Source: a virus. Taken from it: DNA of 64,000 nt. Position numbers and translations under genes: made by a program. The stretch lies in IMG/VR virus record IMGVR_UViG_3300021138_000016, positions 1-64,000 of that record. One strand, written 5' to 3'. Of the stretch, positions 11,640-40,600 are shown one piece after another (the stretch's first letter is position 1; every line of letters starts with the position of its first letter). Below the pieces are notes generated by a model. That model saw nothing but the letters and a program-made list of their open reading frames with translations, did not search any database and had not been told where the DNA came from.

Positions 11640-11894
11640 ATGAAATTAGGACACAAACAAAAAGGAATATTAAAATTAATGGAAGATGGATGTTTTATAA
11701 ATTCTATTTTTGATTATACAGACTGCTCTACTGTAAATGTTTTACAAGATGATGATAATAATTATCACAGTAATATTACAAATAAAGAATTACAGGCTTT
11801 GATTAATAAGGGCTTATTTAATGAACATTACATTAACAAATCTATCAACATTGATATTCGTGAGTATAGGCTTAAAACCCCAACTGTAAACTAG
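11640..11894 (+). CDS. hypothetical protein
   Basis: ORF track; end of the + operon. Confidence 0.6.
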   Translation: MKLGHKQKGILKLMEDGCFINSIFDYTDCSTVNVLQDDDNNYHSNITNKELQALINKGLFNEHYINKSINIDIREYRLKTPTVN

Positions 11895-12576
11895 GATAAT
11901 ATTGTAAGATAATAGCCTTTAGCTTGTCGATTGATATAGCTGCATCACTTGGCTTAGTACTAGTATTTGTAGGACTATTTAACCCTAACCACGCCAAAGT
12001 AAAGTGGTCGAATTTGACTACTTTAAAATAATAATCCGCTATATAAACTTGGTTGTACTTATGTGGGTGCGAAGTGCTGATTAATACACCCGTGTAAACT
12101 TCACAATCATATTTACTGCCAATACTATCAAATACTATTGCTTCTATATTTTTCCATTGTTGCTCATTGAACCACGATATTTGAAAGGCTGTATTAGTAG
12201 AAAACATCATAGTTTCCTCTGCTGCTATACTATCGAAAGACATTGATTGGTACGGGATTATATGACCGATGTCAACAGTATTATGCTTATCTCCCTTGTA
12301 TTGCTTATTGTAATTAGCATAGTCTGACTTGCTTACCGTTTGCCATTTAGATGGTATTAACGGGTCTTTATGGAACTCGGTTAATAAACTACCTTCACGC
12401 TTTAATTTTGGGCTATTATGGTGCGTAATCGTTTGAGTGTAGTGGTTTAGTATCCCTTGACAAAACACCGTATCAAATTGCACCGTATAGTACTTATGGT
12501 TAAGTTGTATCGTATGCTGCCCCCACGAGTTGACTACAATCACTAACCAACTGAAAAATAATAATGTTTGTTTCAT
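11872..12576 (-). CDS. secreted DNA/RNA non-specific endonuclease (NucA/Serratia betabetaalpha-Me family)
   Basis: Signal peptide ending SWG-Q; DIGHIIP, TMMFSTNTAFQ, FNEQQWKNIE, YYFKVV. Confidence 0.85.
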   Translation of the reverse strand: MKQTLLFFSWLVIVVNSWGQHTIQLNHKYYTVQFDTVFCQGILNHYTQTITHHNSPKLKREGSLLTEFHKDPLIPSKWQTVSKSDYANYNKQYKGDKHNTVDIGHIIPYQSMSFDSIAAEETMMFSTNTAFQISWFNEQQWKNIEAIVFDSIGSKYDCEVYTGVLISTSHPHKYNQVYIADYYFKVVKFDHFTLAWLGLNSPTNTSTKPSDAAISIDKLKAIILQYYPSLQLGF

Positions 12577-14585: not shown

Positions 14586-15119
14586 TTATACAAACAGTTT
14601 TTTAGCTTGTGAGTACATACTATTAAAGTCGCTTATCTCTATTGCAGTAGGCTTATAGTTCTTATCACCATACACCCATAAATCTTCGTAGGCTTGGCAG
14701 AAATTAGCTTCGGTTACATCGGTAAAAGATACATAAGGACTGTTAATTTTTCCGCCTACATAAAGCCCTCTAGTGGCAATTTCATCACTAAGAATATCTA
14801 CACTAGCTTTCCAACTATCAAAACATAAAAAACCCCTTGATTTGCCCGTAAGGTTTTCATTTTCGATGCAGTAGCCTGTGAAATGAACGCTGTATTTGTT
14901 TGGGAATTTGTCTCCATCGCTTTGTAAGCCAATATAGTTGTTTTGCACCCCTGCCGTTCCATTTGCGCCCTCATTCCTAAATATTAAGTAAGTAGCCCTT
15001 TTAACTTCTAACGGTACTTCTAGTGTCTTTATATAAGCAATAACACTATCCATATCAATAGAAGTCTTTTTATATGGTAGTTGTGGTAGTAGTGGGTATG
15101 CTTTGTTGTATTGTGTCAT
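14586..15119 (-). CDS. endolysin, lysozyme-fold (GH73 glucosaminidase-like)
   Basis: RNEGANG...NNYIGLQ...FLCFDSWKASV; next to spanin/holin genes. Confidence 0.65.
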   Translation of the reverse strand: MTQYNKAYPLLPQLPYKKTSIDMDSVIAYIKTLEVPLEVKRATYLIFRNEGANGTAGVQNNYIGLQSDGDKFPNKYSVHFTGYCIENENLTGKSRGFLCFDSWKASVDILSDEIATRGLYVGGKINSPYVSFTDVTEANFCQAYEDLWVYGDKNYKPTAIEISDFNSMYSQAKKLFV

Positions 15120-15328: not shown

Positions 15329-15513
15329 ACTATAAAAATTGTATTTATTAAATGAGTAAAAAAGTCGTTATCTTGTTTAATTTTCTGCTTTACTTGTTCT
15401 TTCTTCCTCAATACCTTATCTACATAAACATCTTTGCTTTGTAATATCTCATCGCTTTCAACTTCAACCATTACTTTCTTTTCGCCTACTTGTATTACTA
15501 TTTTATAAGTCAT
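15325..15513 (-). CDS. hypothetical protein
   Basis: ATGA overlaps on both sides. Confidence 0.6.
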   Translation of the reverse strand: MTYKIVIQVGEKKVMVEVESDEILQSKDVYVDKVLRKKEQVKQKIKQDNDFFTHLINTIFIV

Positions 15514-16028
15514 AATCTAGGTTTTACAATATACAATACCAACGCAATTACTATCGCTGCAATCAATAGCCAAAAGTACAACTCCCACCTACTAGCATCT
15601 TTTTCGTTTGATGCTGCTTGTAATCGGCTATCTGTTACCGCTTGGTTAAGTATTGCTATCTGCTTATCCTTATCCTCAATTTGCGATTTAAGTATGGATA
15701 GTTGTTGATTATCTACTATCGTATCTTTATCGTGAATGTGAATAGTATTAGTGTGGGTTATTGTAGTTGTATCGTGTATGTAATTGCCTACTGTATCATG
15801 ACAAGTAACTATAGATGTATCGTGTAAATAGCTTGTATCGCTACTATGCGATATCACCTTATTATCGCAAGGGTGTAAGCTAGTGTACACTTTCCCAACC
15901 GTATCGAATAACGGTTCTTTAGTAAGCACCTTCTGTAGTGCTGTACGGTCGGACATACAACCTATAAAAACGTTGCCCCAAATAATAAAGTTAAATAACC
16001 ATAATAATATTACTGTTGATTTTTTCAT
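15510..16028 (-). CDS. unimolecular spanin-like lipoprotein
   Basis: Signal peptide with lipobox FIG-C, D-T repeats, coiled coil, C-terminal TM helix. Confidence 0.65.
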   Translation of the reverse strand: MKKSTVILLWLFNFIIWGNVFIGCMSDRTALQKVLTKEPLFDTVGKVYTSLHPCDNKVISHSSDTSYLHDTSIVTCHDTVGNYIHDTTTITHTNTIHIHDKDTIVDNQQLSILKSQIEDKDKQIAILNQAVTDSRLQAASNEKDASRWELYFWLLIAAIVIALVLYIVKPRL

Positions 16029-16079: not shown

Positions 16080-16280
16080 CTAAAATGGTGCTATTATTAT
16101 GAGCAATAAAAACAATGTTAATAGTACTAAGTATGATATTGGGTTATATTTATTCAACCCCTTTGTAGAATAACTTTTTAAGCCAGTGTTAGGGTCTTCG
16201 TAAGGCGGCTTACCATCCGACTTAATCACTTTTAATTTTATCAATATAAAAGCAAGTAAAAGTTTTATTTTGTTACTCAT
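16080..16280 (-). CDS. small membrane protein
   Basis: C-terminal hydrophobic helix. Confidence 0.5.
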   Translation of the reverse strand: MSNKIKLLLAFILIKLKVIKSDGKPPYEDPNTGLKSYSTKGLNKYNPISYLVLLTLFLLLIIIAPF

Positions 16281-16480
16281 TTTCTTTTCATTTTAATTAA
16301 ATCAGAATCAGATAATTGTAAATCGTGAATATCATCTTTAGTTAATCCACTTATATTGCAATAAAAATTAGCAGGGTATTTTATCACAACTGTACACCCC
16401 ACCAACGCCCCTAACATAGCCAAAAAGACTATCATTATGAATAAGTAGTTGTAGCCTTCGGTGTGTTGTTTATGGTGCAT
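16277..16480 (-). CDS. small membrane/lipoprotein
   Basis: Hydrophobic segment ending LVG-C. Confidence 0.5.
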   Translation of the reverse strand: MHHKQHTEGYNYLFIMIVFLAMLGALVGCTVVIKYPANFYCNISGLTKDDIHDLQLSDSDLIKMKRK

Positions 16481-16485
16481 ATTAC

Positions 16486-16569
16486 TTAAATTTTAAACAT
16501 AACCCAACCCACGACACAAACTATCGCTGTAAGGATTACTTCTTTAGTGAGGAATAGTAGATGTTTCAT
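16486..16569 (-). CDS. 27-aa hydrophobic peptide (not in ORF track)
   Basis: MKHLLFLTKEVILTAIVCVVGWVMFKI, A-rich leader. Confidence 0.5.
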   Translation of the reverse strand: MKHLLFLTKEVILTAIVCVVGWVMFKI

Positions 16570-16582
16570 TTTTTCTAATTTT

Positions 16583-16620
16583 AAAAGTACCCTCTATCGT
16601 TCTTGTGTTAGATAGAGGGC
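16583..16620 (-). terminator. hairpin / weak intrinsic terminator
   Basis: GCCCTCTATC-(12 nt)-GATAGAGGGT then ACTTTT on - strand. Confidence 0.5.
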
Positions 16621-16787
16621 GTTAAGTGTGTCTCGGACACTAGCCCCGTATGATTTGAGGGCGAACTTGGGGCAATGTAGCCGCAATGATGTTAAAAATG
16701 TGGGTCTCTGGAAACGTTATAACACTGCTTAGGTGCGTATGCGTTGTGCAATCCTTTTATGCCACATTCATTTACTTGCACCATAAT

Positions 16788-17045
16788 TTACTTTGAAGGC
16801 TCACTCGTAAGTACTTGCCCGTTGCTATTTGTAATAAACTGCTTTAACACATAAGAAGCCCCCACCGTCAAAGCTGTATGCTCAACACTATGCCAATCAA
16901 TATTAAATGTACCTGCGTTAATTGACGTGTAAACAATACTACCCACCGAACCTATTACGGCAGCTATTAATCCGTGAATAAAATCTTTAACCCTTACCGA
17001 ATATAAACCGCTAACCTGATTTGCGAAAAAACTTTGTAAACTCAT
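16788..17045 (-). CDS. holin
   Basis: Two hydrophobic helices, KDFIHGLIAAV...IDW...YVLKQF pattern; lysis context. Confidence 0.65.
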   Translation of the reverse strand: MSLQSFFANQVSGLYSVRVKDFIHGLIAAVIGSVGSIVYTSINAGTFNIDWHSVEHTALTVGASYVLKQFITNSNGQVLTSEPSK

Positions 17046-17049
17046 TTTA

Positions 17050-17328
17050 TTAATATTTAAGTGTTAATACTTTTACTACATTCATTTGAGCATCTAGTAT
17101 GTCACCAAAAGCCTTATTGATAAGGATATTGCTAATTTCTGAACGTTCACATCCACTTGTTTCGGTGTAAAGTAAATCAGCCAAATCGGCACAAAGCCTT
17201 TTAGCTTTACTAACTTTATCATCGTTGCTTGGATTAAAAGTTAATCCTACTAATTTTTCACCAAAAGTCCGAACAGTTTGGGGGTTTGTTGGTTCAGCCA
17301 TTTCGAATTCTTTTTTTTCTGTAATCAT
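17050..17328 (-). CDS. Acb2/Tad1-like helical-hairpin protein (candidate cyclic-nucleotide sponge)
   Basis: TFGEKLVGLTFNPSNDDKV.KAK...A...D...AQM.VVK pattern recalled for this family. Confidence 0.5.
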   Translation of the reverse strand: MITEKKEFEMAEPTNPQTVRTFGEKLVGLTFNPSNDDKVSKAKRLCADLADLLYTETSGCERSEISNILINKAFGDILDAQMNVVKVLTLKY

Positions 17329-17331
17329 TTC

Positions 17332-17421
17332 TTATCTTTTTTTATTGTTTAATGGATACGCCAATACGGCATAACCCATATACATAGACAAAACTACATA
17401 AATAAGTTTAATTATCCACAA
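17332..17421 (-). CDS. 29-aa membrane peptide, TTG start (not in ORF track)
   Basis: MWIIKLIYVVLSMYMGYAVLAYPLNNKKR; stop 3 nt before next ATG. Confidence 0.4.
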   Translation of the reverse strand: MWIIKLIYVVLSMYMGYAVLAYPLNNKKR

Positions 17422-17432
17422 TTTATTTTATT

Positions 17433-17648
17433 TTAGTCTATTTCGGGGTTTTTCCCTTTCTTCACCAACTTTCTCATTTGATACCATTTATCAATAGTAA
17501 ATGCCATCGTCAATAACCCCGTACCTATGGACACATAAACAAGTACATCACTTGCTGTTATTACTCCTGCTACACCTGATAAGTTGGTAATAACCCAACC
17601 TAGTAAACTGTACTTGCTATTGGTATTAGCTTCGTTTAAATGTTCCAT
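17433..17648 (-). CDS. holin/antiholin-like membrane protein
   Basis: Two hydrophobic segments, basic C-terminus. Confidence 0.55.
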   Translation of the reverse strand: MEHLNEANTNSKYSLLGWVITNLSGVAGVITASDVLVYVSIGTGLLTMAFTIDKWYQMRKLVKKGKNPEID

Positions 17649-17892: not shown

Positions 17893-18849
17893 TTAGTAGA
17901 CTTTATAAAAGTTATTTACATTTCCTCCTATTGCAGTAGCGTTTGATATTTGATTGCTTTGCCATACTACAACTTCTTGGAAATATTCTGTACTGAAATT
18001 AGCTATTGCATTATCAGTTCCTAGTGCTATTGTTCCACCACCTGTTGATACATTTGCGGTATTATTTACAGTTATGGGAGCATTTGAACCGTTTAACTTC
18101 AAGGCATTTTCAGTACTATTTAATGAGCCAAACCAAATATTTTGAGAGTTATTAGTATAAATATGTGTTGGAGTTAATAATCTAGGGTTATTTGATGAAG
18201 GATAGCCATTGCCAAACATTAGAGTTCCACCTCCAACCCAATCTTGGTAATTATTTTGAGCAGATGATATAAAAGATTTGAAACCTGTGCTTGGTGGATT
18301 TATACCAATAGAAAATTGATAATTATAACTATAAAACGCCCCTGTACTCCATTTATTAAACATTACACTACTAAAGGATAAAGATGTTGCAAAAGAACTA
18401 AAGCTTGTAGTTGATAATAAATAATTAGTTGAACCGTTAAATACCGCACAAACATTCCCATTTGTGTAGTTAATAACACCAGAAACAACTAGACTAGGTT
18501 GCGCTGTGGCTGTACTTTGCGATACATCATAGCCGCCGCCGCTTTGGTCATACCAAGTAGTTATAAAGCCGTTATTAACCCCAACGAAAGTCTTTAATGT
18601 GGCTGTGTCTAAATAGTTGTTTACAAAGCCGATATTACTTTCGGTGTTATCACTACTACGGCGAACTCTAATACAGTTACCTGCATAAGTACTTGATAGC
18701 TTTCTGAATGAGTAAGCAAAGCCTGTCGTTGGGTATAAGTCTAGTAAGAAAGAGTATTGGCTTAACGGCACATAATAACGGCTAGCATTGATTATTTGCC
18801 CTTTGCCAACAGTAGCAACTAATAGTAATATGATTAATAACCTATACAC
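17893..18849 (-). CDS. secreted ConA/LamG-like (AbfB-N-like) lectin-fold protein
   Basis: Signal peptide ending GKG-Q; AYSFRKL...Y.GNCIRVRRSSDNTESNIGF...ITTWYDQSG. Confidence 0.7.
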   Translation of the reverse strand: MYRLLIILLLVATVGKGQIINASRYYVPLSQYSFLLDLYPTTGFAYSFRKLSSTYAGNCIRVRRSSDNTESNIGFVNNYLDTATLKTFVGVNNGFITTWYDQSGGGYDVSQSTATAQPSLVVSGVINYTNGNVCAVFNGSTNYLLSTTSFSSFATSLSFSSVMFNKWSTGAFYSYNYQFSIGINPPSTGFKSFISSAQNNYQDWVGGGTLMFGNGYPSSNNPRLLTPTHIYTNNSQNIWFGSLNSTENALKLNGSNAPITVNNTANVSTGGGTIALGTDNAIANFSTEYFQEVVVWQSNQISNATAIGGNVNNFYKVY

Positions 18850-21193
18850 GCTTCTTATATCCGATTAATGTTAAAGTAAAATAGGTAGGCTTAGTCGTAA
18901 CTTTTGGTGTTTTAACCCACACCCAAGTATTAGGGGGTATTTTCATATTATCAAAGCTAGTAACACTATTTAGCCCATACAGACTGCTTATCGTACTTCC
19001 TGCTGTCACTAACTTATATCCGCCTGTTGTTTCAACTAATAAACTATCATTTACCCATACAGTTGCTAACACACTAGCCGATGTCCCTTGCACCCCTCCT
19101 TGTATTCTTGTTATCACTAAAGTATCAGTTCCACTATTGAAGAATGAGCCATATACTGCCGATGTGCTGAATGCTGCCGTGTCCCCTGCCGCTGCTGAAC
19201 CTGCACCAAAAGAAACTAATGTAATAGTGTCTGTGTTTAGTGTAACTGTTGATGGTAAATCTGCTGCTGTCGCTGCACTAACATTACCACTACCGTCCGC
19301 CTTTAATATCCCCGTTACACTACCTGCACCGCCTTTAGTACTGCCTATTACTGACCCGTTCCATGTAGCGTTGGTTATACTTGCCGCCCCTAGATTAAAA
19401 GTGTTTGTACTCCAACTTACCGCCGAAGGTGCGCTAAAATGATAATCCCATGTACCCGCTGAACTGCCATTGCTTACCAATACAACATAGGCATAACCGC
19501 CCGAAGGGATGGATAAAACAGTTGTTCCAGAGTTATTGTTTACGGTTACTGCTCCACTAGACTGATTGTTATTGAAACTAAAAGTACACCCATTGGGCAA
19601 AGTAGTTGCATCAGGTAACTGCACAACCTGCCCACCTGACCCTGTTATGTAATAGTTGGGGGTAGATAAAACGGTTAAAGTTATCTGTGTGCCGCTTGCC
19701 GCTACGTTACTAAAACCGCTATAAAACGTATTCGCCGCTACATTACCACACGCTGTATCTACTGTTACACCGTTGGTATATCCCACATGGTTTGTGCCAT
19801 TCCAATAAGTTAGGGGTACTTTCGAAGATGTGATAGTTGGGGAGTTGCCTGTGATGCTACCTGTGCCTTTGTTAGCGTTGAAGTAAGTAGGGGTAATGTA
19901 TAAACTACTATCTTTTGCCATTAAGACTTGCCTAAAATATTGCCCCGAACCTATTTGAGCAAATAAACTACCATTATGAGTGCCTATCAAATTATAAGCA
20001 ACGTTTCTGTTGGTGTCGGGCAATGATAAGTAATTAATAGGATATATCGCACCTCCTGTTATGGCTGCGCTACTCGATGCGGTTACGTCACCTGCAAAAT
20101 CAAAAGAAACGCCACTATTACTTAATGTGCCTGTTTTGCCGAAAGTCCAATAGTTAGTATTGTTATTCATTATTTTCAAGTCGTTATTATCCGTAGTACC
20201 CAATGTTGCAGTTGTGCCGAATGAGTTGCCGCCTTGTGAGAAATAATTAGAAGCGTTTAAACTATCTTTAGGAACGTTACCGATTGCAACCAATAATGAA
20301 CCGTTTGTATTATTAGCGGTTACTATACCTATTCTCATTGCAGGGTATAATGTAGAGGGGGTTGGTGATATTCCCCCGTTATCGCCTAGATAAACGTTTT
20401 GTCCTGCATTGTATATGCTTAAATTAAGCCCCGTTACTATCCCCCCGTTATAAACTATTCTTCCATATCCATTATTAGGGATGGAATCTAAAGATATTGC
20501 AAAAGGGGGGTATCTAGGATTACTACCTTTTGCTATTGCTATACTAGATGTTGAATCAAGGCAAACGGGTGTTAGTGGGGAAATCCCCGTCCCCGTATTT
20601 TTGGGACTAGCCCCTACTGTACTTAACCTACTTGAATTGCCAAGACTATCTATGTAGTAGGGTTCTGTAAAGCCATTATTAGTCTTTGAATAAACCGATA
20701 TTCCGACACTAGGATTAGAAGGGTCTGTACTTAGTGGGGTATAATTATTTTTGGTTGTTTTACCTATGTAATAATATGTCGTACCGCTAGGTGTATCTAT
20801 TGAAAGATTTGCAGTATAGCTTAATGAATGAACACCATTATAAAATGGTATGTCTTGAATAACACCATTTCCCGTTATTACGTTAGAAGGTAGTGAGCCT
20901 AACTTAAAAGCATACCAATTGTCATTTATTAAAGTAGTTGATTTTAATTGATAGGTAGTGTCTGTGTTTTTAACATAAACTAACATACCGTATTTTCTTT
21001 CTGCAAAGGGGATTGAATCCCTTTGACCCGTTGTTACTAATACTCTGTAACCCCCTTTTACTAAACTATCGTATGTTACGCAGTAGTTTGTATCTGCTAT
21101 TGCATTAGTAGATATTGGTGCTGTTATTTTTGTATTTTGGGCATTAGCGTACCCTATTAATCCTAAAAACAATATAATAAATATCTTTCTCAT
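18842..21193 (-). CDS. fibre-like multidomain protein with Sec signal peptide
   Basis: MRKIFIILFLGLIGYANA-Q; GGYRV...RDSIP..ERKYGMLVYV, QGGNSFGTTATLGTTDNN and QLPDATTL modules typical of phage fibres; S/T/G/N-rich. Confidence 0.7.
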   Translation of the reverse strand: MRKIFIILFLGLIGYANAQNTKITAPISTNAIADTNYCVTYDSLVKGGYRVLVTTGQRDSIPFAERKYGMLVYVKNTDTTYQLKSTTLINDNWYAFKLGSLPSNVITGNGVIQDIPFYNGVHSLSYTANLSIDTPSGTTYYYIGKTTKNNYTPLSTDPSNPSVGISVYSKTNNGFTEPYYIDSLGNSSRLSTVGASPKNTGTGISPLTPVCLDSTSSIAIAKGSNPRYPPFAISLDSIPNNGYGRIVYNGGIVTGLNLSIYNAGQNVYLGDNGGISPTPSTLYPAMRIGIVTANNTNGSLLVAIGNVPKDSLNASNYFSQGGNSFGTTATLGTTDNNDLKIMNNNTNYWTFGKTGTLSNSGVSFDFAGDVTASSSAAITGGAIYPINYLSLPDTNRNVAYNLIGTHNGSLFAQIGSGQYFRQVLMAKDSSLYITPTYFNANKGTGSITGNSPTITSSKVPLTYWNGTNHVGYTNGVTVDTACGNVAANTFYSGFSNVAASGTQITLTVLSTPNYYITGSGGQVVQLPDATTLPNGCTFSFNNNQSSGAVTVNNNSGTTVLSIPSGGYAYVVLVSNGSSAGTWDYHFSAPSAVSWSTNTFNLGAASITNATWNGSVIGSTKGGAGSVTGILKADGSGNVSAATAADLPSTVTLNTDTITLVSFGAGSAAAGDTAAFSTSAVYGSFFNSGTDTLVITRIQGGVQGTSASVLATVWVNDSLLVETTGGYKLVTAGSTISSLYGLNSVTSFDNMKIPPNTWVWVKTPKVTTKPTYFTLTLIGYKKRV

Positions 21194-21200
21194 TTATACT

Positions 21201-22181
21201 TTAATAATGTAATGAATAACTTATAGCCCCTGTTGTCGTAAGAGGGGAAACTAATACTGTGTAATTAGCAATACCCCCACTTTGATTTGTGAAACTATTA
21301 TATGGATTAGATATGTATGATACTTGAAGACCCCCTATATATACTAAAGGAGTTGTGATAGTAGATAGGAAAGCAAAAAAAACATACTTTGGACTTGAAG
21401 GGGCAGCTAAATTGCCTATCAACGGTGTGTTAAATATCGTATTGCCCGTTGTATTTAAAAATGAATTTGCACCTGCATATAATTCAGAAGGTGTTGGCGT
21501 AGATGTAGAAGAATACCCTATATATATCTTGCTATAAGCATTAAAACTTGTTGTTGCTGTTGCTGATTTTCCGTCTGTAGTTAAAACAACGTTACTAAAT
21601 GAAGTATTAGTATTATATGTTACTGTTACCCTTTGTGTGTCACTGATTGTACAAGGGGGGGATGAACACCCTGTTGTTGATTTGCTAACCCCTGCTACTG
21701 TAATAGATGCAAAAGGGGATGTTGCTGCCACGTTTGTTCCTGCGGCTAACCTTCCTGCTGAATAATTTAAAGTAGGAGTGAATGTCCCCGCACTATGTAG
21801 TTCGTAATTACTTCCCCCCGTCAAAGTAGCAGTAGGGTTTTGTGTTTGTATCTTTACATACCCCAATAAGGTATCATTAAGTGCTGTATGGGTTACAAAT
21901 AGGCTACTATCTACTGTTGATGAGTTTCGTTTCCATCCGAAACCATTCCAAAACCATTTTGCTGTATCCACCCCTGCATTTGCAAAAATTATTTCTGTAC
22001 CATAATAACGGGCTTTCATATTTGTATCCGTCCTTACTGCGGGGATATAGCCACTATCTGATTTTAAAAAAGCGTATTTTATCCAACTTGTAGAATTGGT
22101 TACGGGATTACCTTGTGGGAGTGATTGTGAAAATCCCCCTAAGACAAAAAAACAAGATATAAAACTAATTACTAATCGCAT
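21201..22181 (-). CDS. beta-rich structural-like protein with Sec signal peptide
   Basis: MRLVISFISCFFVLGGFS-Q; Thr/Ser-rich. Confidence 0.65.
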   Translation of the reverse strand: MRLVISFISCFFVLGGFSQSLPQGNPVTNSTSWIKYAFLKSDSGYIPAVRTDTNMKARYYGTEIIFANAGVDTAKWFWNGFGWKRNSSTVDSSLFVTHTALNDTLLGYVKIQTQNPTATLTGGSNYELHSAGTFTPTLNYSAGRLAAGTNVAATSPFASITVAGVSKSTTGCSSPPCTISDTQRVTVTYNTNTSFSNVVLTTDGKSATATTSFNAYSKIYIGYSSTSTPTPSELYAGANSFLNTTGNTIFNTPLIGNLAAPSSPKYVFFAFLSTITTPLVYIGGLQVSYISNPYNSFTNQSGGIANYTVLVSPLTTTGAISYSLHY

Positions 22182-22956: not shown

Positions 22957-24237
22957 TTATATAAATCTTATTCCGTTTTTCGATAAATTCTGTAATGCTT
23001 CTTTTGCTTCTTCTATACAATCAGTATTTATCTTTAAATCATGCCCTTTTACTGTTTTTGCTATTTCTACTGCCATTTTAATTGCAGACTCCATAGAGTT
23101 ACCTAATCCTATAACCGCACCGACCTCGCACATTTCAATATTGTTAGGAACATAGTAATGTGTACCATCTTCTTCTACTACTAAATTCTTAATCTTTACG
23201 TTATTTTTATACTCTATTGGGAACTGAATTGCTATTGGCTCTGTTTTAGCTAATTCAGACTTCATAATTAATTCGCAGCCCCAAAGATACTTATATTTTA
23301 TGTTTGGAACAATACCGTTTGCAACTTCCCATATTATTTCAGAATAATTTTCATATTGTTCTAATGTTATAGAAGTATTGGGTTCGGGAAATCTTAATGT
23401 CGGGTCAATAAAATACCCCACCTTGTTTTCATCAACCCTTATTTCTGTACTAAATGCAGCCCTATAACCTTTACTTTGTAGTATTGGTGCAAATTTGTCA
23501 TTTACTTCCCTTACTTGTTTAGGTAGCATTTCATACCTAGTCATTTTGCTAACAGCGCACGCATCTTTTATCTCTAAGCAACAACTACTTTCTTTTGGGT
23601 ATTCCCCGTCCACAGAAAAGCCATCGTAGCCTATTTCTCCGATAGCATCTACGGGGTCGCAAATCAAGTAAGTTTCATCATTTGCATAAGTTCCCATATC
23701 GTGTTTAAGCCTTTTTAACTCTGTTTGTGTAAGCGTATAATTAACATGATGAAAAGTTTCGAGGTCGCCACGAAGGCTTGCTTTGATGTATTTATCTTCT
23801 ACTCTTTTCAACTTATACTCTAACTCGTCTAGCCCATTTGCTACATCATAAGTTAGTGTAGGCAATCCTAAGTCACTAACTAATTCTAAAAATTCCTTTC
23901 TATTGCTTTCTAATTCACTTGCAGTACCCCCACCAAAAACGGGTTTGCCTATCCCTCTAAGATATTCTTGCAATCCCCCCATGTATATGTCTGTAAATAC
24001 AAATAAATCTATCTCTCTAATATATTGCCACCAATCATCTACTCTTTCTACCCCTTCAACTCCTCTACCTATTGAATGTGCTTTATGGTCTTTAAATCCA
24101 TTTGTTACAGATGGGATATAATACAATACTCTTTTATAGTCTCTAGCCAACCTTTCAGCAACGGCAAACTGACTGCCAAAATCGAAAACCAAAACGGTCA
24201 TTTCGCTTAGTCCATATTTATCATATACCTTATCCAT
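22957..24237 (-). CDS. PurD(GARS)-like ATP-grasp amide ligase
   Basis: Pre-ATP-grasp domain, PVFGG..ELESNR, YIK, EIGYDG, STEIRV...FIDPTLRFPEP (cf. PurD E.N.RFGDPE). Confidence 0.7.
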   Translation of the reverse strand: MDKVYDKYGLSEMTVLVFDFGSQFAVAERLARDYKRVLYYIPSVTNGFKDHKAHSIGRGVEGVERVDDWWQYIREIDLFVFTDIYMGGLQEYLRGIGKPVFGGGTASELESNRKEFLELVSDLGLPTLTYDVANGLDELEYKLKRVEDKYIKASLRGDLETFHHVNYTLTQTELKRLKHDMGTYANDETYLICDPVDAIGEIGYDGFSVDGEYPKESSCCLEIKDACAVSKMTRYEMLPKQVREVNDKFAPILQSKGYRAAFSTEIRVDENKVGYFIDPTLRFPEPNTSITLEQYENYSEIIWEVANGIVPNIKYKYLWGCELIMKSELAKTEPIAIQFPIEYKNNVKIKNLVVEEDGTHYYVPNNIEMCEVGAVIGLGNSMESAIKMAVEIAKTVKGHDLKINTDCIEEAKEALQNLSKNGIRFI

Positions 24238-24663: not shown

Positions 24664-27600
24664 TTATTGTTCTGTTGATGGTTCAAATCCCTTCCCGCTT
24701 GGATGCTTCTCGTTGTTTTTGTAAAAACTTTTTATATCTTTATCCAATTGTTCATCAATATGTTTTTTCTTTTCTTCCTTTTGTTCTTCACTAAGGGACT
24801 TGTTTGTTTCTACTTCTCCTTTTCTGTGTTTTGCAGACTTTACTGCGTTTGTTGCTTTTTTATACCAAAACTCGGACAATAATTCTTTTTTATTCCCTAT
24901 ACCTACCCATTTAACGTAATCTTCGGGTGTAAAGGTAACTCTTTTTATGTCATTCCCCTTTTCATCTACATCATTAATTTTATAAGGCGGCAATAGCCTT
25001 TGCGAAAGCGGGTCAAACACCCATTTTTGTCCCCTTTCTAATTGTGGTGAACTTTCAATAAGATGTTCCACATTTGACACTACCGCATCTTTTGCCGCTG
25101 CTGCCGATATTTCTCCACGTTTAATTTTATCTTTATACACATCTGCCGCATCTAAAGCCATCATTGCAGGATAGAAAGCGGGGGTATGTTCTATTACCAT
25201 AGACACCCATTTAGGTAAAGTATAATTACCGATACGAATATCCCCCGTTTTTGTTTCGGGTTCTTTTGTCTTTTTTTGCCTTCTTTCTTTCTCCTTATCT
25301 TCTGCTGATTGACCTAGATGTGGGAATCCACCAAATGAAGCCCCGAAATACATTGACCCAATAGAAGCTAAAGCAAACATCCCTAACCCAAATCCCCCCT
25401 TTCTAAAAGCCCTTGCTATGGTTGCAGCTTCTTTAGCGGGGATTTCATTTAATCGTTCCCTTAATGCTGTTTTAAATTCTTCTGAATCCCTATCAGTATA
25501 TCCTAAATCAAACGCTTCGCCTTTAGCTTGTCTATATGCCTTATTCATTTTATATACTGCAATAACAGACCCTGCCGTGTATTCCATAACTAACTCTTTT
25601 AGCATATTGTTAGGTACACGGGTAATTGCTACATCTAGTCTTAATGCCGCCGCTACTGTGGGGTATTTTTTTTCTATATTAGTTAATGTATCGTTCCAAA
25701 ATCTTGTTACCGCATTATCTTCTGAATATTTACCACGTTCCCAATCGGGATAACTGTCATAGGCTATTTCTAATATTTTATTTGAATCTATTGGCATCCC
25801 TGCTTCTATATTCCCTTCTAATCTTGCAATAAATCCTGCCGCAAATTCAGAACGTGCAGAAAATGTTTTTAAAGCCCCGTGAAGCCTTCCCATCACACCA
25901 ACTAAATGTTCTATTGATTGTACAGATACTAATTGGTTTTGCCAATCGCTTCTTTCTTCATTCAATTCGCCAAATTCTTTTTCTATTTTATTTACCCTAT
26001 GTAAAAAAGTTTCATAAGCATCTTCAAAAGAACGTCCTGCAATAAACTCATATACCATATTGCCCAAGTCCTCTACCATAGCTTTGCCGTAATCTACTTT
26101 TAACTTGTCTACCTCTGTTTTTTTAGAATCATACTCTTTAGACTTTGATAAAGGGATTTCATCTAATTCTTTTTTGGCATCTAAATATTTACCTTCCGCT
26201 AGTTTAAACTTTTCCCTAGATTTTTCGTATAAGTTAGCTAATCCCTTCTCACCATATTGCATCCAAACAGCTTGTTGCAGTTTCTTTAGTGTTTCTATGG
26301 AATTGCTTTCGCCACCTAGCTTTGCATTTTTAGAAATAGCCTTTGTTGTTTCAAATGGAAGTGCATCAAATATTTTACCCGTAGTAAGTTTTGTTAATGC
26401 GTTTAATTGGGGTTTTATCCCTGCCGAAAATGCCACTTTCAACAAAGTTTTCCAACTATGTATAAGAAAAGCCACATTCAACCCTCTTGCCAATACTCCT
26501 GCCGCCCTCCATTGCCAATTTTTACCTTTGTTTTGTGAGGCTGCTTTTTCTTTAGACAATTCAAATGCTTGTTTCTTTAATCTTCTTTGATTTTCAAGCC
26601 TAATCAAGTCTGCATCGTATTGGGTAAATGGTTCTGTCTTTTTAGGCTCATCATCAAATTCCCCTGCATTTATTTTTCTTTCATACTCATTAATATCTGA
26701 TTGAAACTTACGTTTGGTTTTTTCTAACTTAATAGTAAGTTCATCTTTCTTTTTATCTTCTTCATAGTTATCTAATATAGACTTTGCTTTTAACCTATTC
26801 TCATAATCTTTAGCATCTTTAAATACATCCAAAGCGTTTTTCATAGCTTTTTCTGCTGCTTTAAATTTAGGTTCTTCGCTTGTCCCATCTAAATAAACTT
26901 TTGACTTCTCAAGTTCATCTATTGCATTTTCAAGCATAGACTTTTGCCTATTAAAATTTTTGTCAGTAGTGTCCCCTATTTCTTCAATCTTGTTTTTAAA
27001 ATCTTTTATTGCGTCATCTACTCTTTGATTATGACTTGATGCACGAGTTTCATAAGAAGCCCTTGTAGTGCTATCTGTATGACTTACTTTCAACTCCTTC
27101 TTCCTTAGTGAATCAGCTAATTCTTTTTGTTTTTTAACTAAGTCCTTATCTATTTGTTTAGGGGATTTATTACGGTTCTTTTTAAAATATTCCCCACTTT
27201 CATTAACTCTTTTTATCTGTTTGTCATAATCCTCTATCTGTTCATTTTTGCGATTTATATCCCTCTGAATCTTCTTTAATTCGTTTTCTTTATCACGCAA
27301 TTCTTTGTCAGCAACTTTTACTGATTCTTTTAATGCTTCTATTTCGGGAGTATCTATTTTTTCGTTGGATTTAGCCCTTTTTTCACGAATACCTTGTTGC
27401 AACTTATCCCTTTTATCGGTAAGTTCTTTTATTGCCCTTTCTTGTCTTTTTGCTTCATTTTCTTTATCACGCAATTCTTTTCTTGCTGCCGCTGCCTTTT
27501 CACGTCTATCTTTTAATATGGCTTCCTTTTCAGCAATAAGACCCTTTTCATATTCGTCACGTTCTCTTTGTGATTCAAATTGTTTTCCCTTAATATCCTT

Positions 27601-30600
27601 TAACTCCTTCAAGTCATTAATGTCATTTTCTAATTTAGTAATAGCATTAAATTCTATTTGGGTGTTTTGTTGTTTTGATTTAATCTTCCTAGATGTTTCT
27701 TGGGTAAATTCGTCTTTTTTAAGATACGCTTTTCTTAGCTTATTCTCGTCAACGTTTGGTAATACTTTCTTTAATTCTTCTAATGCTTGGGGTAATATTT
27801 CTTTCGCATCATAAGAAGGGAAATGAGCCTTAATATAATCATCAATTAGTTTTTTGCCTACCATTTCGTTATTAATATCATTTACCCCGTTTAGTTCGGC
27901 ATATTCTTTTATTGCATTTAAAGACTTTTCAATAGATGAAGGCTCGTTTAATATTTCTTCGTCTATCCCTGCTTCTTTTAACTTAGTCTTTATTTCTAAT
28001 TTTAATTTTTCCTTATCCGTACCATCATCGACTTTATTTACTGCTTTTTCTATAATGTCAGGGATTGATTTATCCCCCTTGTCTAATCCTGTTTTTATTT
28101 CACGAATAGCATCTGCGGACGACATTTTTTGTGGGGTTTCTTTACTGCCCGTATCTATCTTTTCTGATTTAGCACGTTCGTCAAATTCAGTAGCAAAATC
28201 TTCTAGGATAAGTTTAGCTTTATCCCTAATTGGTTTTTCTACTTTTGTTTTATTTACTTTCCCGCCTTGTGCTTTATCAGCCTTTTCTGATTCCGATTTT
28301 GCTTTAGCAACATCATCAGACAATCTTTTTTCAAAGTCTTTCTTAATCTTTTCAATTTCTATTTCTTGTGACTTTATAAGACTTGCCCTTTCTTCTTCCC
28401 AATCCCTTGCTGTTCTTTCTAGTTCTTCGGGGGATAAAGGTTCACCCTTTGCAGCACGAAGTTCTCCACGCTTTATTTCTAATCCCGTATCACTATCATA
28501 TCCTAATGCGGCTTGTAAGAATACTAAAGAACGCCCTAACGTAGTACCCCCTGCTTTAATTACTTTTACTATATCTTCAAATTGGCTTATTAATTTTTTA
28601 TAAGAATCATTTGCTTTTTCTTTTGATAATGGGGTTTCGGCAGTAAATCTATCTTCTGATTTTTTTACTAAATCTTGTTCTGTTTCTCTTTTTAAATATA
28701 ACATTACTGCCAAATCTTCATCATCCATTCTTATCCTGCCATTTTCAATATCCGAAAGATGTTTATATAGCATTTGTTCTGCACCTTCTTTTAAACTTAA
28801 ATGGGGGTAATCTTGCTTAACCCTATTAAGCCCTTTTTCTAAACTTTCACTCCACTTTTTAACCCCTTGTGCTTCGTAGGCTTCTTTTAAAGCAGAAACT
28901 TCTTTTAATTGGGTAGCCTTGTTTATTTGAGTAAATTTAGGTTGCCCACTTTCTTTTATAATAGGTTCTGTAATAGGAGGCACAATAGGAGGTGGGGGAA
29001 CAAGCCCCCTATCCTCAAATACATCTTCTTCCCGCCCTTCGGCATCGGCTTCTTTGTCCCTTTGTCTTTCAACTTGTTCTATTTTTGCTTCTCTACCGAT
29101 ATTGGCATTATCTTGTGTTGGGGTTTGTTCCCCTACTGTTTCTTCTTTCGGCTCAACGTTAATATTGCCGCTTTTTTCTGTAAATCCGTTAGTGGCTGCG
29201 TACTGTTCCCAATATTCTTTTTCAAGTTGTTCGATTGTATCAAACTGTTGTTCTGCAAGTTTTTGTTGCCCTTCTGTGAGTTTTCTAAATTCATTTTCTA
29301 TCGCTTTTGTGGCTATCTCATTGTTTAATGGAAGCCCTGTTAATTTTTCAAATTTGTCTTTTGCACTTTGTGCAACGCTATTTTCTGATTCTTTTAATGC
29401 GCTACTTTCGCCTTTAGGGAATTTGATAATAAAGTCAACAATATCTTGTGGGGTTATTTCAGTTCCATAATGGTCGGACATTTCTTTTGCAACCTCGTCT
29501 ATACTTCTTGCTTCTTCGCCTTTTTTGCCTTTAAAATAACTATTTATAATGTCGGAATCAATATTATTCCTATCCCCAAAACTTTTAAAGCTATCTTGAG
29601 ATATTTTACCAAGACCATATTCTGCTATTTGTCTTTCTTTCGTGTCAATTACTTCCCCTTCGGGCTGTTGCCTAATATAAGTTTCTGCAATTTCTAGTGG
29701 ATTATTTGAATTGTCAATTACATATTGGTCTGCTTCTTTCTCGTCTTTAAAAGAAATCCCTTTAGGTTCTTTTGAAACTTCTCCCACATTAAAATTATAA
29801 TTGTCTGCCGCCTCGTTTATAACCTTTTTAGATGTTTTTTTACTTACTTCTTTACCCGTATTAATATCAACCACTTTGGCAAACCCGTTCTCGTCATAAA
29901 CTAATTTATTTCTCCCACTTTTTGAAATATACTCTTTTGGTTCTGCAACTTGGATATTTTCTTCACTAGGTACAGATGCTTCTTCTTTAGGTACAGATAC
30001 TTCACTTGTTGGGATAGGTGTCGTAGGTTTTTCTTCTTGTTGTTGGGGTTCGGTTGCTTTTTCTGCTGCTACTTCTCTCTTATTTAATTCATTTGCATTT
30101 ATGAATTTAATATCCGCACCTAACCCTAAGTTTTCTACTTCTCCTGCAACTGCATTACTATTATCTATTAATACCCCCCCACTTTTTTCTGCTAAAGATG
30201 CCTTTTCTTCACCACTTAACCCTTGTATTATTGTAAGGTTCTTTTCTGCTTCGGGGGATAATCCCATAGTCTTTAAAATTTCAGCCTTGTTTTCTTCGGG
30301 GTTATCCTTTCCACTTTTGGTAACTATTGTTACCTTCTCCCCGTTTTCTAAACGTTGCTTTACTTCTTTACCAAAAGGTAATAATTCCCCATTTTTAGCT
30401 ATTGTACTATGATAGTCTGAAAATATTGGTCTGCCTTCAAATTCGTTTTCTTTACTTACAAATTTATCTGTACCCTTCTCTATTGGGGCTTGTTCCCCTT
30501 CTGCTTTTTTAACTTCCTTCTTTAATTGTTCTGCCTCAAATAATTGTTTTCTATACTTAGATGGAAATTCGGCATCGTCACTTTTTACTACTTCCTTAAT

Positions 30601-36056: not shown

Positions 36057-36851
36057 TTAATTTGTTACTTGTTTCCATCCGAACCCAGCTGCACTATATC
36101 CCTTGCCATTAACCACTCTTGCAATACTCTTCGTATCTAATCCAAGACTTTTTGCTGCGTGAGATATACTTGTATAATAAGATATAACTACATTTGTTTT
36201 TAAATCAAATTGACATACTTTTTTATGTTGAGAAATATTAGATTTGCCATCTTTAAATTTCCAAACATATCCCGCACAAGTTTTACTGATACCATTTACT
36301 GCATTTTTTATAGCAGTTCTTTTTAATCCATTTTCATTTGCGGCATCTACCGTACTAGGGTACTCTTTTATAAAGTCACCATTGGTATCATACTGCAATA
36401 TTGCTCTTTGAGATGCCTCTTTACACTTTAATAAAGTTTCCTTAGAAGGTTTTACTCTTGCATTATTTACGCTAACCCTATTTCTTGATTCGATAGATAA
36501 CGACTTCCCAATATTGGATAATGATATTTTTTCTGTCATATCTTTACTCCTAATCTCTTTTAATTCTCCATATTTAGGCAAAATAGAATTTAAACCTAAT
36601 TCTAAATCTAATACATTATATAACAACCCAAATTCTCTTTCTTTTAAAAATCTAATAGAAACATCTCCTTCCCATACTATTTCTGTTTTGTGATTATTAT
36701 AACCATAAGCAAAAATGCTATTATATAGCTTTAATTGAAATTTGCAATTACCGTTTTTATAATAGTTCAATCTTCGCTCAAAATTTAAGGTAGAGCCAAT
36801 ATAAACTTGCCCAATAGGATTCGTTATTTTATATACAAATGCTTTACCCAT
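36057..36851 (-). mobile_element. free-standing GIY-YIG homing endonuclease with NUMOD repeats
   Basis: FVYKITN...VYIGST; two NUMOD1-like repeats (QYDTNGDFIKEYPS...AGYVWK; QFDLK...AAGFGWK). Confidence 0.85.
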
Positions 36852-37315: not shown

Positions 37316-37628
37316 TATCTATTATAAACTCATTTATTTGTGATTGTATTTCAGTATTGTAAGAACCAAAGTTAGGTCTTATTTGTGATTGTTGTAATGT
37401 TGGGATATTATTGTTTATCTCTAAAGTAAAATATCCTGCAATAGTGCCATTATCTCCTTCTATTCTATAAGGGATTACATTGCTTGTTACCAATGCTATT
37501 TTGGCATCTACAAGGGGTTGCAAAACATTCCCATTACCAACAACGGGGAAAGCGGTTTGCCTTGCATCCAACAAAACAAACTGAATTAACTTTGCATAAT
37601 AAAATTCGTAAACAAATCTGAACGTCAT
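37281..37628 (-). CDS. truncated GNAT-like protein
   Basis: YRIEGDNGTIAGYFTL...SQIRPNF. Confidence 0.45.
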   Translation of the reverse strand: MTFRFVYEFYYAKLIQFVLLDARQTAFPVVGNGNVLQPLVDAKIALVTSNVIPYRIEGDNGTIAGYFTLEINNNIPTLQQSQIRPNFGSYNTEIQSQINEFIIDNGWQKDYLQTG

Positions 37629-40600
37629 TTTTCTACTATTGAATTGCCACTAGCAATGTATTGTAAGTAAATCTTGTTTAACTCAAAGTAACTTCCTGCA
37701 CTATAAAAATCTTCTATCAATCTAAGTATAAAGTATTTCCCTGCTACCCTATTGCCATCTACTATCATACTTCTAAAGTCTTGTTCTGCATCGGCAGGGG
37801 GGTATGTATTCCCGTTTCTTAAAACTTGCCCGTAAGATAACCCCTCTTTATTTTGAAAGTAACTCGAAGGTACATAACTAAAGCTATATTTTGCAGTAAA
37901 ATAAATTAAGTCTATGAACATTTTTGCATTAGTAATGTCTAAAGCTACATTCTGTAATATCTTTATTGTTTCGGGCATCATATTTATTACTAGCATTAAA
38001 GCAGGTAATTGAGTAAGCCCATAATAAGTGCAATAGTCTGTTGGTGGGGTATTATTGTGATAATAAGGTAATCCTGCTGCAAAACTGAAAAACTGATTGA
38101 TTGTACCTATGCCCCTTAATTTGCCATAACTTTCGGGGGCGAATCCTGCAAACCTTGTCCATCTTCCCGTATTCAAATTAAAGACTAATGTTTCTTGGAA
38201 GTCTAATTGAATATTTCTTCTATCGTTTACATAAGATGTTAAGTCATTTGTTTTGCCCCTTCTTGGTCTGAATGTAAGGTATATGTTTTCTCTTTCTAAA
38301 TCTATTCCACTTACTACGTCAAATTTGTATCCTGTACTGTTATTTTCGTTCCAACTGCCTATGAATTGGGATTTGGCTGTATAGTAAGATTTAATCCCCA
38401 CTATTGCACCGTTTTCAATAATATGTGTAATGTCTTTTGCTTGTCTGAAATCACAAAGTACATAGCATCCGTTTCTTTGGTCGTGCCAAAAAGCATACTT
38501 ATCATTGAATAAAATGCTACTTGTATATTCATAAGCGCATCCGTAATTATCCCCTATTTTTTGATGTGGCGTACCCATAGCATTATCTAGGTTTGCTATT
38601 TGTACTCCTTGTGCGTTTGCATATATGTAGTTGAAGTTAAAGTCGGTTACAAACCAATCGTTTTCACAAAGGAAAAACACTAATTGGAATTGGGTTTTGA
38701 TTGCGACAATCCCCCCACGACCATAACCCTTAAACACTTTTCTGTTTTCATTTCTAAATGTTGCTAATCCGTTCTTTAAACCTTGACTGATATAATCATC
38801 TGATTTAATAGTATCATCTAGGTAGAACATTTGTTTTGCATAGGGGTTTATTAAGTTTGATTGACCCCCACTTGCTGCATCGTAACCCCAACTATCTGTT
38901 ATGTTTGGGCTTTCAAAGTTATGTGTAAAGAACTGCACCCCTGCATTTGGGATAGTAATTGAACGTGGGAATAAATAAGTATCCCAATAGTTTAAATCCC
39001 CCGTAGTAGGAGCATAGGTAACCCCGTTATACACTATTGAAGGTTCTCCATCTATTATAGGCATCCAACTTGTAATGAATGTTTGGCTATTTTCTTGTGA
39101 TTCTGTTTCGCTTTGAAAGAAAGGTGTCAAATCATTATTTTCAGAAGGGGAATAAATCTCTATCCAAAAGCCTGTTTTAAACTGTAACTGATTGAATCTA
39201 TTATCGTATTCTACAAATAAATTCACCCCTGTTGATGTGGTTGTGCTACTTGGTAATACAGTATTTGAAGGGGGCGATATAAGTTGTGCGTTTATCGCTG
39301 ATTGGTTGTAGTTTGTACCTTGTATTGGTACGTCTATAACTGCACTTAATAATTGCCCTTGTCCATTATCATATATCCTTAATCTATCGTTTTGTTGGAA
39401 CTGATAGTTTGCCAATAAGTTAAGATTGTTTTGAATATTTGTATTCAATAGGCTTGTAATAGATACAGAACAATACGTTGCCAAAGCGGGGTCAATTACC
39501 ACTATTCCTGCCGCATTATAATATGTAATGGAATCCCCTACCCATTGTATGTATTTTTTATAGTTGGTGGCTTTTGTAACAAAGAAAGCCATATATGCTG
39601 CATTTTCGGTTTGGGTATATGTATTCAGTTTTAATCCCCCCGTAGCAATAGCCCATTGTAAATAAGTAGGTAAAGTATTCCCCCTTGAAACAAAAGAAGG
39701 TACTGTAATGTCTTGTACTTTTTGGATAGCCGTTACTCTCCCTGCCAAATCTGCCAAAACAACCCCCACAGAATAACTACCTTGTTGTTTTACACTTGTA
39801 TATTGATTTGCTATCACATTAACCAATAATGGGTATGGCGAATAAAACAATGTCCTTTGTGAAGTGGAACAAGCCGATGCAGGTAAAGCCTGTGGTACTA
39901 TATATCCACAATTGGCAAGCGTAATCAAGAAATTACCGCCTGAATTTACATATACCAAGTCTGTTGAAGTGTAAACATTATCAGATGATTTTCTTGTGCT
40001 GCTGCTACTTGCATTATGTATGACCAATGTGGCAATACCATCTTCGTTGGTGTATGCAACTGCCCCATCCTTTACTGATACCCCTATATTTGAATACGGT
40101 ATAGTGCCACTTAAATCTGTTACTTTTGCCTTATAAATTATTGCATTTACGTTTACATTGTAAGGCGTGGTATCAGGAGAAACGGGAACGTAGTCTGAAA
40201 TGTACGATATCCCCATAGTATTATAGCCGCCGCTAGACGCACCTTTTGCTAGAATTGTAAATAATATAAAGTTTCCACATTCAAAATAACCTTGAACATG
40301 AACATCCGTTGCCGCACTTGTAGCATATCTAAGCATAAAGAAAAACCCATTCTTATCTGTGTAGTAATACTTGGGAGACCCTGCTCCCGTTGCAGGATAA
40401 TTTAAGTCTTTAGTGCCAGATATTTGTAATAATTCAAAAGGATTGTTTGTAGTCCTAGTGTCATATATGTAGCCTTCATTAAAGCACCATTCCCCTGATT
40501 TTGTTGCGGGCGATAATACTATGAAGGAGTTGATGGCATCCCCCCACACATCCACGTCACCTGCCGTACAATCAACCTCAAACTCCTTTGAATAATCCAA

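Follow-up and report, generated by a model that had tools for sequence, protein, structure and literature searches.

Predicted export leaders and O-glycosylation sequons on fibre-type proteins of an uncultured Bacteroidota phage

The late region of an uncultured tailed phage carries three consecutive genes for fibre-type proteins, and the product of each starts with what looks like an export signal of the Bacteroidota. The genes lie in the virus record IMGVR_UViG_3300021138_000016 of IMG/VR, which is 78,142 bases long and is rated complete by CheckV; bases 1-64000 of this record were analysed and are referred to here as the window. The three products, p326, p783 and p318, are named after their lengths in amino acids (aa). 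Behind its leader, p783 is also densely loaded with the motif at which Bacteroidota O-glycosylate their exported proteins. The explanation to which we would give slightly better than an even chance is Sec export of the three proteins, pyroglutamate capping, O-glycosylation by the host in the periplasm and attachment to the phage particles at lysis.

The cytoplasm is the assumed site of both folding and assembly for the parts of tailed phages. A glutamine (Gln) directly after the signal peptidase I (SPase I) site, known as the Q-rule, is described as Bacteroidetes-specific and as stabilising exported proteins in passages of PMC5837995 and PMC10653852, and the latter also ascribes this stabilising effect to pyroglutamate capping. 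As stated in part of PMC12871550, general O-glycosylation takes place in the periplasm, and its motif is enriched in the non-cytoplasmic proteins of the phylum. Both the Q-rule and the O-glycosylation motif are established for cellular proteins in the portions of these papers concerned with them (PMC5837995, PMC10653852, PMC12871550). The motif, or sequon, is taken here as D-(S/T)-(A/I/L/V/M/T), and its shorter form, aspartate (Asp) followed by Ser or Thr, is written as D-S/T.

Leaders of the three late proteins

The three genes and their predicted signal peptides are as follows.

21201-22181, minus strand: p326, 326 aa; a leader, a variable sequon-rich N-terminal domain (aa ~20-108) and two beta-sandwich domains (aa 110-326)
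18842-21193, minus strand: p783, 783 aa; a leader and a mosaic tail-fibre protein with 12 sequons spread over its length
17893-18849, minus strand: p318, 318 aa, GTG start; a leader and a ConA-like/GH54-like lectin module of the phage minor-tail type
22128-22181, minus strand: predicted signal peptide of p326, aa 1-18, ending in ..GGFS, then Gln19
21140-21193, minus strand: predicted signal peptide of p783, aa 1-18, ending in ..YANA, then Gln19
18799-18849, minus strand: predicted signal peptide of p318, aa 1-17, ending in ..VGKG, then Gln18

The genes are tightly packed. The p326 gene overlaps its upstream neighbour by 17 nucleotides (nt), p783 follows at an 8-nt step, and p783 and p318 overlap by 8 nt. 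Each N-terminus consists of a short charged stretch and an uncharged hydrophobic core, with a small residue at -1 and Gln at +1. Leaders were called by a custom rule (positive n-region, uncharged hydrophobic core, small residue at -1) and not by SignalP. An earlier reading of this DNA, made from the sequence alone, had proposed that three consecutive late genes with fibre or lectin modules begin with SPase-I-type leaders followed by Gln (GFS-Q, ANA-Q, GKG-Q). Translation and the leader rule bear out the leaders, and the modules are borne out by their homology to tail-fibre or minor-tail proteins. It is supported that p326, p783 and p318 are built from tail-fibre or minor-tail modules, as far as homology can tell.

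The leaders appear to behave as Sec/SPase I signals of the Bacteroidota, which is supported by the presence of Gln after the leader in nearly all relatives. It can also be argued that the hydrophobic N-termini are an uncleaved membrane tether or a product of chance, and that the proteins are assembled normally in the cytoplasm with incidental sequons. A passage of PMC10367356 lends this some credit: in phage capsid proteins, certain N-termini predicted as leaders are held there to be cut off, in all probability, by the prohead protease; moreover, some of the sequons counted below are inherited motifs. However, the leader rule is positive for only 2/302 and 9/495 open reading frames (ORFs) in unrelated phage loci (0.7-1.8%) as against 31/197 (16%) in leader-fibre phages, and further evidence against a tether or chance comes from the protein families described below.

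No lipobox is present in the leaders of the three proteins, while the neighbouring spanin-like protein has one. Similarly, no C-terminal sorting domain of the type IX secretion system (T9SS) was matched in the three proteins by Pfam or NCBIfam at E<=0.1, a search that divergent domains could escape. Because neither a T9SS sorting domain nor a lipobox was found, p326, p783 and p318 are expected to remain in the periplasm. The same two results leave the suggestion that the fibres are displayed on the infected cell without support.

Sequons in the window

Expected counts were obtained from 20,000 shuffles per protein. In p783, 16 of the 29 Asp residues lie in D-S/T against 7.0 expected (p=0.0003), and 12 full sequons are present against 2.9 expected, a number reached in 0/20,000 shuffles. 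In p326, 6 of the 7 Asp residues lie in D-S/T against 1.9 expected (p=0.002). The Asp counts made by hand in the sequence-only reading (6/7 in p326, 16/29 and 12/16 in p783, 1/7 in p318) proved exact throughout.

The other 108 ORFs of the window (23,352 aa) hold 164 D-S/T against 168.8 expected and 54 sequons against 58.7. As they show no excess, the enrichment is not a genome-wide property. p783 is the most sequon-enriched of all 111 ORFs (Poisson 5.6e-5); the second and third ranks are taken by the lipoprotein at 15510-16028 (4 vs 1.1 expected) and the nuclease at 11872-12576 (3 vs 0.72), both of which are of exported types. When 15 loci are taken together, sequons occur at 1.07x the expected number in 148 leaderless ORFs, at 2.9x in 31 leader-plus-Gln ORFs and at 4.4x in 6 lipoproteins. 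Some further leader-bearing proteins of these loci are, like p318, not enriched.

The p326 family

A profile search of 1.84 billion cluster representatives returned 2,671 p326-family proteins at E<=0.001, of which 171 reach E<=1e-30. The leader-plus-Gln rule is passed by 152 of the 169 family proteins examined (~90%), and most of the others look truncated. In the family alignment (A2), a clear leader with Gln is seen in 26 of 28 rows, one of the remaining two being cut at its start. The leader pattern is kept while the sequence varies, which speaks against chance. Family members consist of a variable N-domain of ~90 residues and a conserved C-terminal part, and the sequons are concentrated in the former: in 121 members, the N-domain holds 214 against 40.0 expected, and the rest holds 63 against 77.4. 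In longer members, the C-terminal module of p326 is preceded by an N-domain like that of p783. As they combine parts of both, p326 and p783 belong to one mosaic set.

The AlphaFold2 (AF2) model of p326 shows two beta-sandwiches at aa 110-326, with a predicted local distance difference test score (pLDDT) >90, and a helix at aa 2-16. It is matched by 43 predicted viral structures in BFVD at E<=1e-3; those at the head of the list bear the names 'Tail protein' and 'Tail fiber protein', and proteins from crAss-like phages and a Tenacibaculum phage are among the 43. Fold searches of the PDB gave only generic immunoglobulin-like sandwiches (Z<=8.7), sequence searches of the PDB gave nothing useful, and the protein atlas gave only leads below 0.9, all of them viral. 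Cys172 and Cys177 are both present in 14 of the 28 alignment rows and both absent in the other 14. This paired pattern is weak evidence for a disulfide, and hence for an oxidising compartment, and it too goes against normal cytoplasmic assembly. The family was found in only 2/301 genomes of the family that contains G001, a Chitinophagaceae metagenome-assembled genome (MAG), so p326 is not a common cellular family among the genomes searched.

Relatives of p783 with and without a leader

A search of 5.8 billion proteins yielded 34 relatives of p783, with the patchy high-identity pattern that is typical of fibre genes; a leader followed by Gln stands at the N-terminus of 19 of the 20 examined. 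A scan of the genome collection with p783 gave no match. On viral contigs, 62 loci with p783 relatives encode 45 distinct proteins, 7 of which bear a leader, while 38 have ordinary fibre N-termini. The 7 leader-bearing proteins hold 63 sequons against 19.1 expected (3.3x, each of them >=2.0x), whereas the 38 leaderless ones hold 62 against 83.6 (0.74x, none >1.3x). The enrichment over signal-less homologues, which the sequence-only reading had named as a check, is thus found.

The module common to p783 and the 38 leaderless fibres is limited to ~aa 401-650. Within it, 10 sequons (3.1 expected) occur in 6 leader-bearing versions and 0 (15.7 expected) in the 38 leaderless ones, the sequences being mutually related, so that these counts are not independent events. 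At site 479, a D-T-A or D-S-I sequon is present in 6/6 leader-bearing versions, while the leaderless versions that can be aligned there (32/38) have R-D-A, Y-D-A, K-D-A or similar. The sequences compared thus support a sequon excess that goes together with the leader, and that does so even among homologous versions of a single module. Incidental sequons would not be expected to be confined to leader-bearing proteins and lipoproteins and to be absent from leaderless homologues of a shared module. Together with the leader counts, this makes a membrane tether or a chance hydrophobic N-terminus very improbable.

Relatives of p318

p318 matches Pfam PF09206 at 1.4e-7 and phrog_10356, 'virion structural protein', at 2.3e-14. 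Among cultured phages, those of Gordonia, Arthrobacter and Synechococcus encode relatives that carry the annotation 'minor tail protein' or 'virion structural protein'. A leader is present in only 1/80 viral relatives of p318, and the locus of that one has three leader-plus-Gln proteins.

Virion parts or exported accessories

In p783, aa 50-83 are 62% identical over 34 aa to aa 21-54 of gp60 of Cellulophaga phage phi18:1 (pairwise E 9e-10), and the N-domain also matches gp61, the neighbour of gp60. Both gp60 and gp61 are leaderless, lie between the tail genes and the holin, and are listed in their record as virion proteins by tandem mass spectrometry (MS/MS) proteomics. A second Cellulophaga phage, the cultured phi18:3, whose terminase and portal are distant relatives of those of the window, offers a parallel for the leaders. 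Its gp085, gp086 and gp087 are consecutive and have leaders that end in ..GYS, ..VSA and ..LNA, each followed by Gln; small membrane proteins and then the endolysin lie downstream. The GenBank record annotates all three as virion, structural or tail proteins from experimental MS/MS proteomics. Since leader-plus-Gln proteins of phi18:3 are recorded in virions, a virion part is favoured over a secreted accessory.

The accessory reading would make p326, p783 and p318 exported but non-virion proteins, derived from fibres, with a site of action in the periplasm or a release at lysis. They might mask or bind receptors (superinfection exclusion, shielding of progeny from debris), or they might bind or degrade envelope glycans and so aid release. 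Accessory genes are often located in the slot between tail and lysis genes, and the same phage is predicted to export a nuclease with the same type of leader. p318 consists of a lectin-type domain alone and lacks a part for docking at its N-terminus, and other large ORFs could encode the receptor-binding proteins of the virion. Part of PMC10367356 deals with five Q-rule genes of unknown function in Porphyromonas gingivalis phages and reads their products as modifiers of the host envelope. However, virion proteins confirmed by proteomics have the N-domain of p783 as their own N-terminal domain, and this domain varies together with the tail backbone: a fibre N-domain is common to 3/3 locus pairs with the same upstream tail backbone as against 4/33 pairs with different backbones, while shaft modules are common across backbones at up to 95% identity. 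No leaderless paralogue of p783, which a decoy could mimic, was found in its own genome, and for the leader proteins of phi18:3 the record gives purified virions as the source. Some phage records that contain the genes show no integrase, so lysogenic conversion is not a general explanation. Considering both sides, an accessory role is regarded as rather unlikely, though it deserves to be kept in mind.

The arrangement recurs. Runs of up to six leader-bearing proteins are found in >=5 different phage backbones and one prophage, where they are placed between the last tail or portal-proximal genes on one side and the holin-like, spanin-like and endolysin genes on the other. The prophage was the one hit in a scan of the genome collection with P0059 and lies in a Chitinophagaceae MAG labelled Chitinophaga pinensis (L147). 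As a separate observation, a small (90-125 aa) leader-plus-Gln protein stands directly after the large leader-bearing fibre in L003, L007, L012, L013, L015 and L147. Such a protein, often with Cys pairs and with D-T-T or D-T-S motifs, is present in most related phages and absent from the window.

Proposed route and the points against it

We infer export, cleavage, glycosylation, virion membership and attachment at lysis as the steps of one route. In this route, p326, p783 and p318 would serve in host recognition as tail-fibre or minor-tail proteins, and they would be expressed late, from an operon that also holds the structural genes. The Sec system would carry them across the inner membrane, signal peptidase I would cut before Gln, and the glutaminyl cyclase of the host would convert this Gln to pyroglutamate. 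In the periplasm, the general O-glycosylation system of the host would modify D-(S/T)-(A/I/L/V/M/T) in p783 and, mainly in the N-terminal domain, in p326. Folding would also take place there, and a Cys172-Cys177 disulfide might form in p326. The fibres would join fibreless particles in the interval between disruption of the inner membrane by the holin, whose lysis cassette lies just downstream, and opening of the outer one by the spanin-like protein.

Several points weigh against this route. The leaders rest on a custom rule and not on a signal-peptide predictor, and their cleavage is a prediction. The enrichment over shuffled sequences that had been proposed stands for p783 in both motifs and for D-S/T in p326; it does not stand for the full sequon in p326 (2 vs 0.8 expected, p=0.19) or for p318, which with 7 Asp has 1 D-S/T against 1.6 expected (p=0.84) and 1 full sequon against 0.6 (p=0.45). 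Two of the 12 p783 sequons, D59-S-I and D78-T-T, are also present in leaderless Cellulophaga virion proteins and are, therefore, inherited domain motifs. With a mean pLDDT of 52, the AF2 model obtained for p783 is of low quality, and the matches that it gives in BFVD lend weak support only. The likeness to gp085-087 of phi18:3 is one of layout and leader, as no BLASTP match of the three proteins to gp085-087 was obtained at E<=0.01. As this similarity is missing and p326 has no relative in GenBank phage records, virion membership in the present phage rests on module homology and position. Linkage by itself might account for the 5' gene end that the same-backbone pairs have in common. The real receptor-binding proteins could be the 1584-aa protein of the window and, in record G305, the 356- and 686-aa ORFs; the idea that the leader-bearing fibre is the only possible receptor-binding protein found no support, since G305 has other large unannotated ORFs. 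Lastly, we know of no mechanism that puts periplasmic proteins onto cytoplasmic particles.

Moreover, gp085-087 are poor in sequons, with 1 against 3.7, 1 against 3.2 and 1 against 2.9 expected (in total 3 vs 9.8). Because these leader-bearing virion proteins are sequon-poor, glycosylation cannot be the general reason for export, and sequon loading looks lineage-specific. The earlier suggestion that the fibres are exported for the sake of glycosylation is thus upheld in part: the leaders and the sequons of p783 speak for it, and the unenriched p318, the two sequons of p326 and the sequon-poor phi18:3 proteins speak against it. Export seems to be a general trait and sequon loading a lineage-specific addition, and the leader-sequon link is strong in this freshwater group and not universal.

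A broader form of the proposed route may be put forward tentatively, as a conjecture that we think has less than an even chance by some way. Widespread tailed phages of the Bacteroidota would then be built in two compartments, with heads and tails made in the cytoplasm and receptor-binding fibres passing through Sec, capped with pyroglutamate, coated with O-glycans in some lineages, and docking only when the holin opens the membrane. In such a two-compartment phage, docking would fall to the N-terminal domain with its dense sequons. The p318 lectin might bind the glycan on partner fibres, in which case a sugar made by the host would be part of the assembly interface of the virion.

Neighbouring genes, phage and host

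The other features to which the argument refers are listed below.

16080-17648, minus strand: small membrane proteins (71, 85, 67 and 66 aa) and a 92-aa protein, with hydrophobic segments, between the fibre genes and the spanin-like gene
15510-16028, minus strand: lipoprotein, unimolecular-spanin-like, with lipobox ..FIGC and a C-terminal hydrophobic stretch (membrane helix), one of the genes of the lysis cassette next to the fibre genes
14586-15119, minus strand: 177-aa protein in the endolysin slot, no family match found
11872-12576, minus strand: DNA/RNA non-specific endonuclease, 234 aa, PF01223 at 1.2e-21, leader ending in ..NSWG, then Gln
59262 to beyond the window end (64000), minus strand: sugar-/methyltransferase island with a GT1-like domain, GT25, an FkbM methyltransferase fused to GT47, and another methyltransferase

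The small proteins at 16080-17648 have no PHROG match and are, by their position, candidates for the holin type. The periplasmic part of the spanin-like lipoprotein carries repeated H-D-T motifs, and its relatives in 5 other loci have 4-6 sequons against ~1 expected, which suggests that this lipoprotein, too, may be glycosylated. In L014 and the L147 prophage, the spanin-like gene is followed by a relative of the 177-aa protein, in the place where other related phages have a lysozyme-type endolysin; it is a candidate endolysin of an undescribed family. The 234-aa nuclease is predicted to be secreted and is the fourth leader-plus-Gln protein of the window. Its N-terminus is found identically in another phage backbone (L009).

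The transferase island invites the proposal that the phage itself tailors the glycan that is placed on its exported fibres, and the set of glycosyltransferase (GT) and methyltransferase domains listed above would suit such a task. Part of PMC12871550 describes an outer O-glycan that is assembled on a lipid carrier in the cytoplasm and that frequently carries methyl groups. Nevertheless, nothing links the island to p326, p783 or p318, and four other leader-fibre records, two of them incomplete, have no GT2 match above the cut-off and no FkbM match. As the island was not found in these four records, the glycan of the host is likelier than a phage-tailored one, and tailoring by the phage appears improbable.

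All late genes lie on the minus strand of the window. Their order is terminase, portal, several unannotated structural genes, the 1584-aa protein, the 2973-aa protein and then p326, p783 and p318, followed by the run of small membrane proteins, the lipoprotein with a C-terminal membrane helix and the 177-aa protein in the endolysin position. Further genes of this region are given here as side observations.

37625-42379, minus strand: 1584-aa giant protein with no Pfam or PHROG match; its end weakly matches gp115 of phi18:3, a virion protein
36057-36851, minus strand: homing endonuclease of the GIY-YIG/HNH type (phrog_314, 2.7e-20), inserted amid the structural genes
24664-33585, minus strand: 2973-aa giant protein, scanned against PHROGs only, with no match there
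22957-24237, minus strand: 426-aa late-operon protein with a weak PurD/ATP-grasp match (TIGR00877, 2e-4, far below the cut-off)

The layout of the two giant proteins, of 2973 and 1584 aa, is like that of gp114 and gp123 of phi18:3. An enzyme of the ATP-grasp type amid structural genes, as the 426-aa protein may be, would be unusual.

The large terminase of the window has distant relatives (~20-25% identity) in 81 GenBank phage records, and the host is named as Flavobacterium, Cellulophaga or Maribacter in 80 of the 81; phi18:3, of the Pachyviridae, is among the 80. From the terminase relatives (81/81 records), the prophage in the Chitinophagaceae MAG and the Q-rule itself, the host is in all likelihood a member of the Bacteroidota. 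The best reading of the phage is that of a short-tailed, Pachyviridae-like, uncultured virus, known here from sequence alone. The record with the closest terminase relative, MW202828, has no equivalent gene cluster past its giant gene, the 31.5-44 kb stretch being excluded from this statement. In the first 34 kb of the record of the Flavobacterium elemo phage, the annotated tail-fibre genes examined are all without leaders.

Significance and comparison with known systems

In the literature searched, supplements excluded, no description of tailed-phage fibres with secretion signals was found, and no paper was found that comments on the leaders of gp085-087 of phi18:3. If the proposed route is true, it would be a new assembly route for tailed phages, and the infectivity of such phages would depend on the Sec, glutaminyl cyclase and O-glycosylation genes of the host. 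A phage leader followed by Gln would point to a host among the Bacteroidota. When produced in E. coli, the receptor-binding proteins of phages of this phylum would be without their native processing.

Virion proteins with glycans or with a Sec passage are known from other phages. Glycosylated virion proteins of mycobacteriophages receive their sugars in the cytoplasm from phage enzymes, and the coat proteins of filamentous phages are exported by Sec and assembled at the membrane by extrusion. These systems share glycans or Sec passage with the route proposed here; the phage of the window is instead tailed and lytic.

Closer in layout is phi18:3, where gp085-087 are likewise three consecutive leader-plus-Gln proteins followed by small membrane proteins and an endolysin. 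Unlike the window proteins, they are poor in sequons, have no detectable sequence similarity to p326, p783 or p318, and belong to a phage of a marine Cellulophaga. The leaderless fibres, namely gp60 and gp61 of phi18:1, the minor tail proteins of Gordonia and Arthrobacter phages and the 38 metagenomic proteins, share homologous N-domain, shaft and lectin modules with the window proteins and are likewise encoded just behind the tail genes, but they have neither a leader nor a sequon excess.

In the passages that describe them, the Q-rule and O-glycosylation substrates of the Bacteroidota resemble the window proteins in their leader, Gln at +1, sequons and enrichment among non-cytoplasmic proteins. 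However, those substrates are cellular envelope proteins, whereas the window proteins are encoded by a phage and made of tail-fibre modules. The Q-rule proteins of the Porphyromonas gingivalis phages, as presented in part of PMC10367356, are similarly phage-encoded with a leader and Gln, but they are not described there as fibres.

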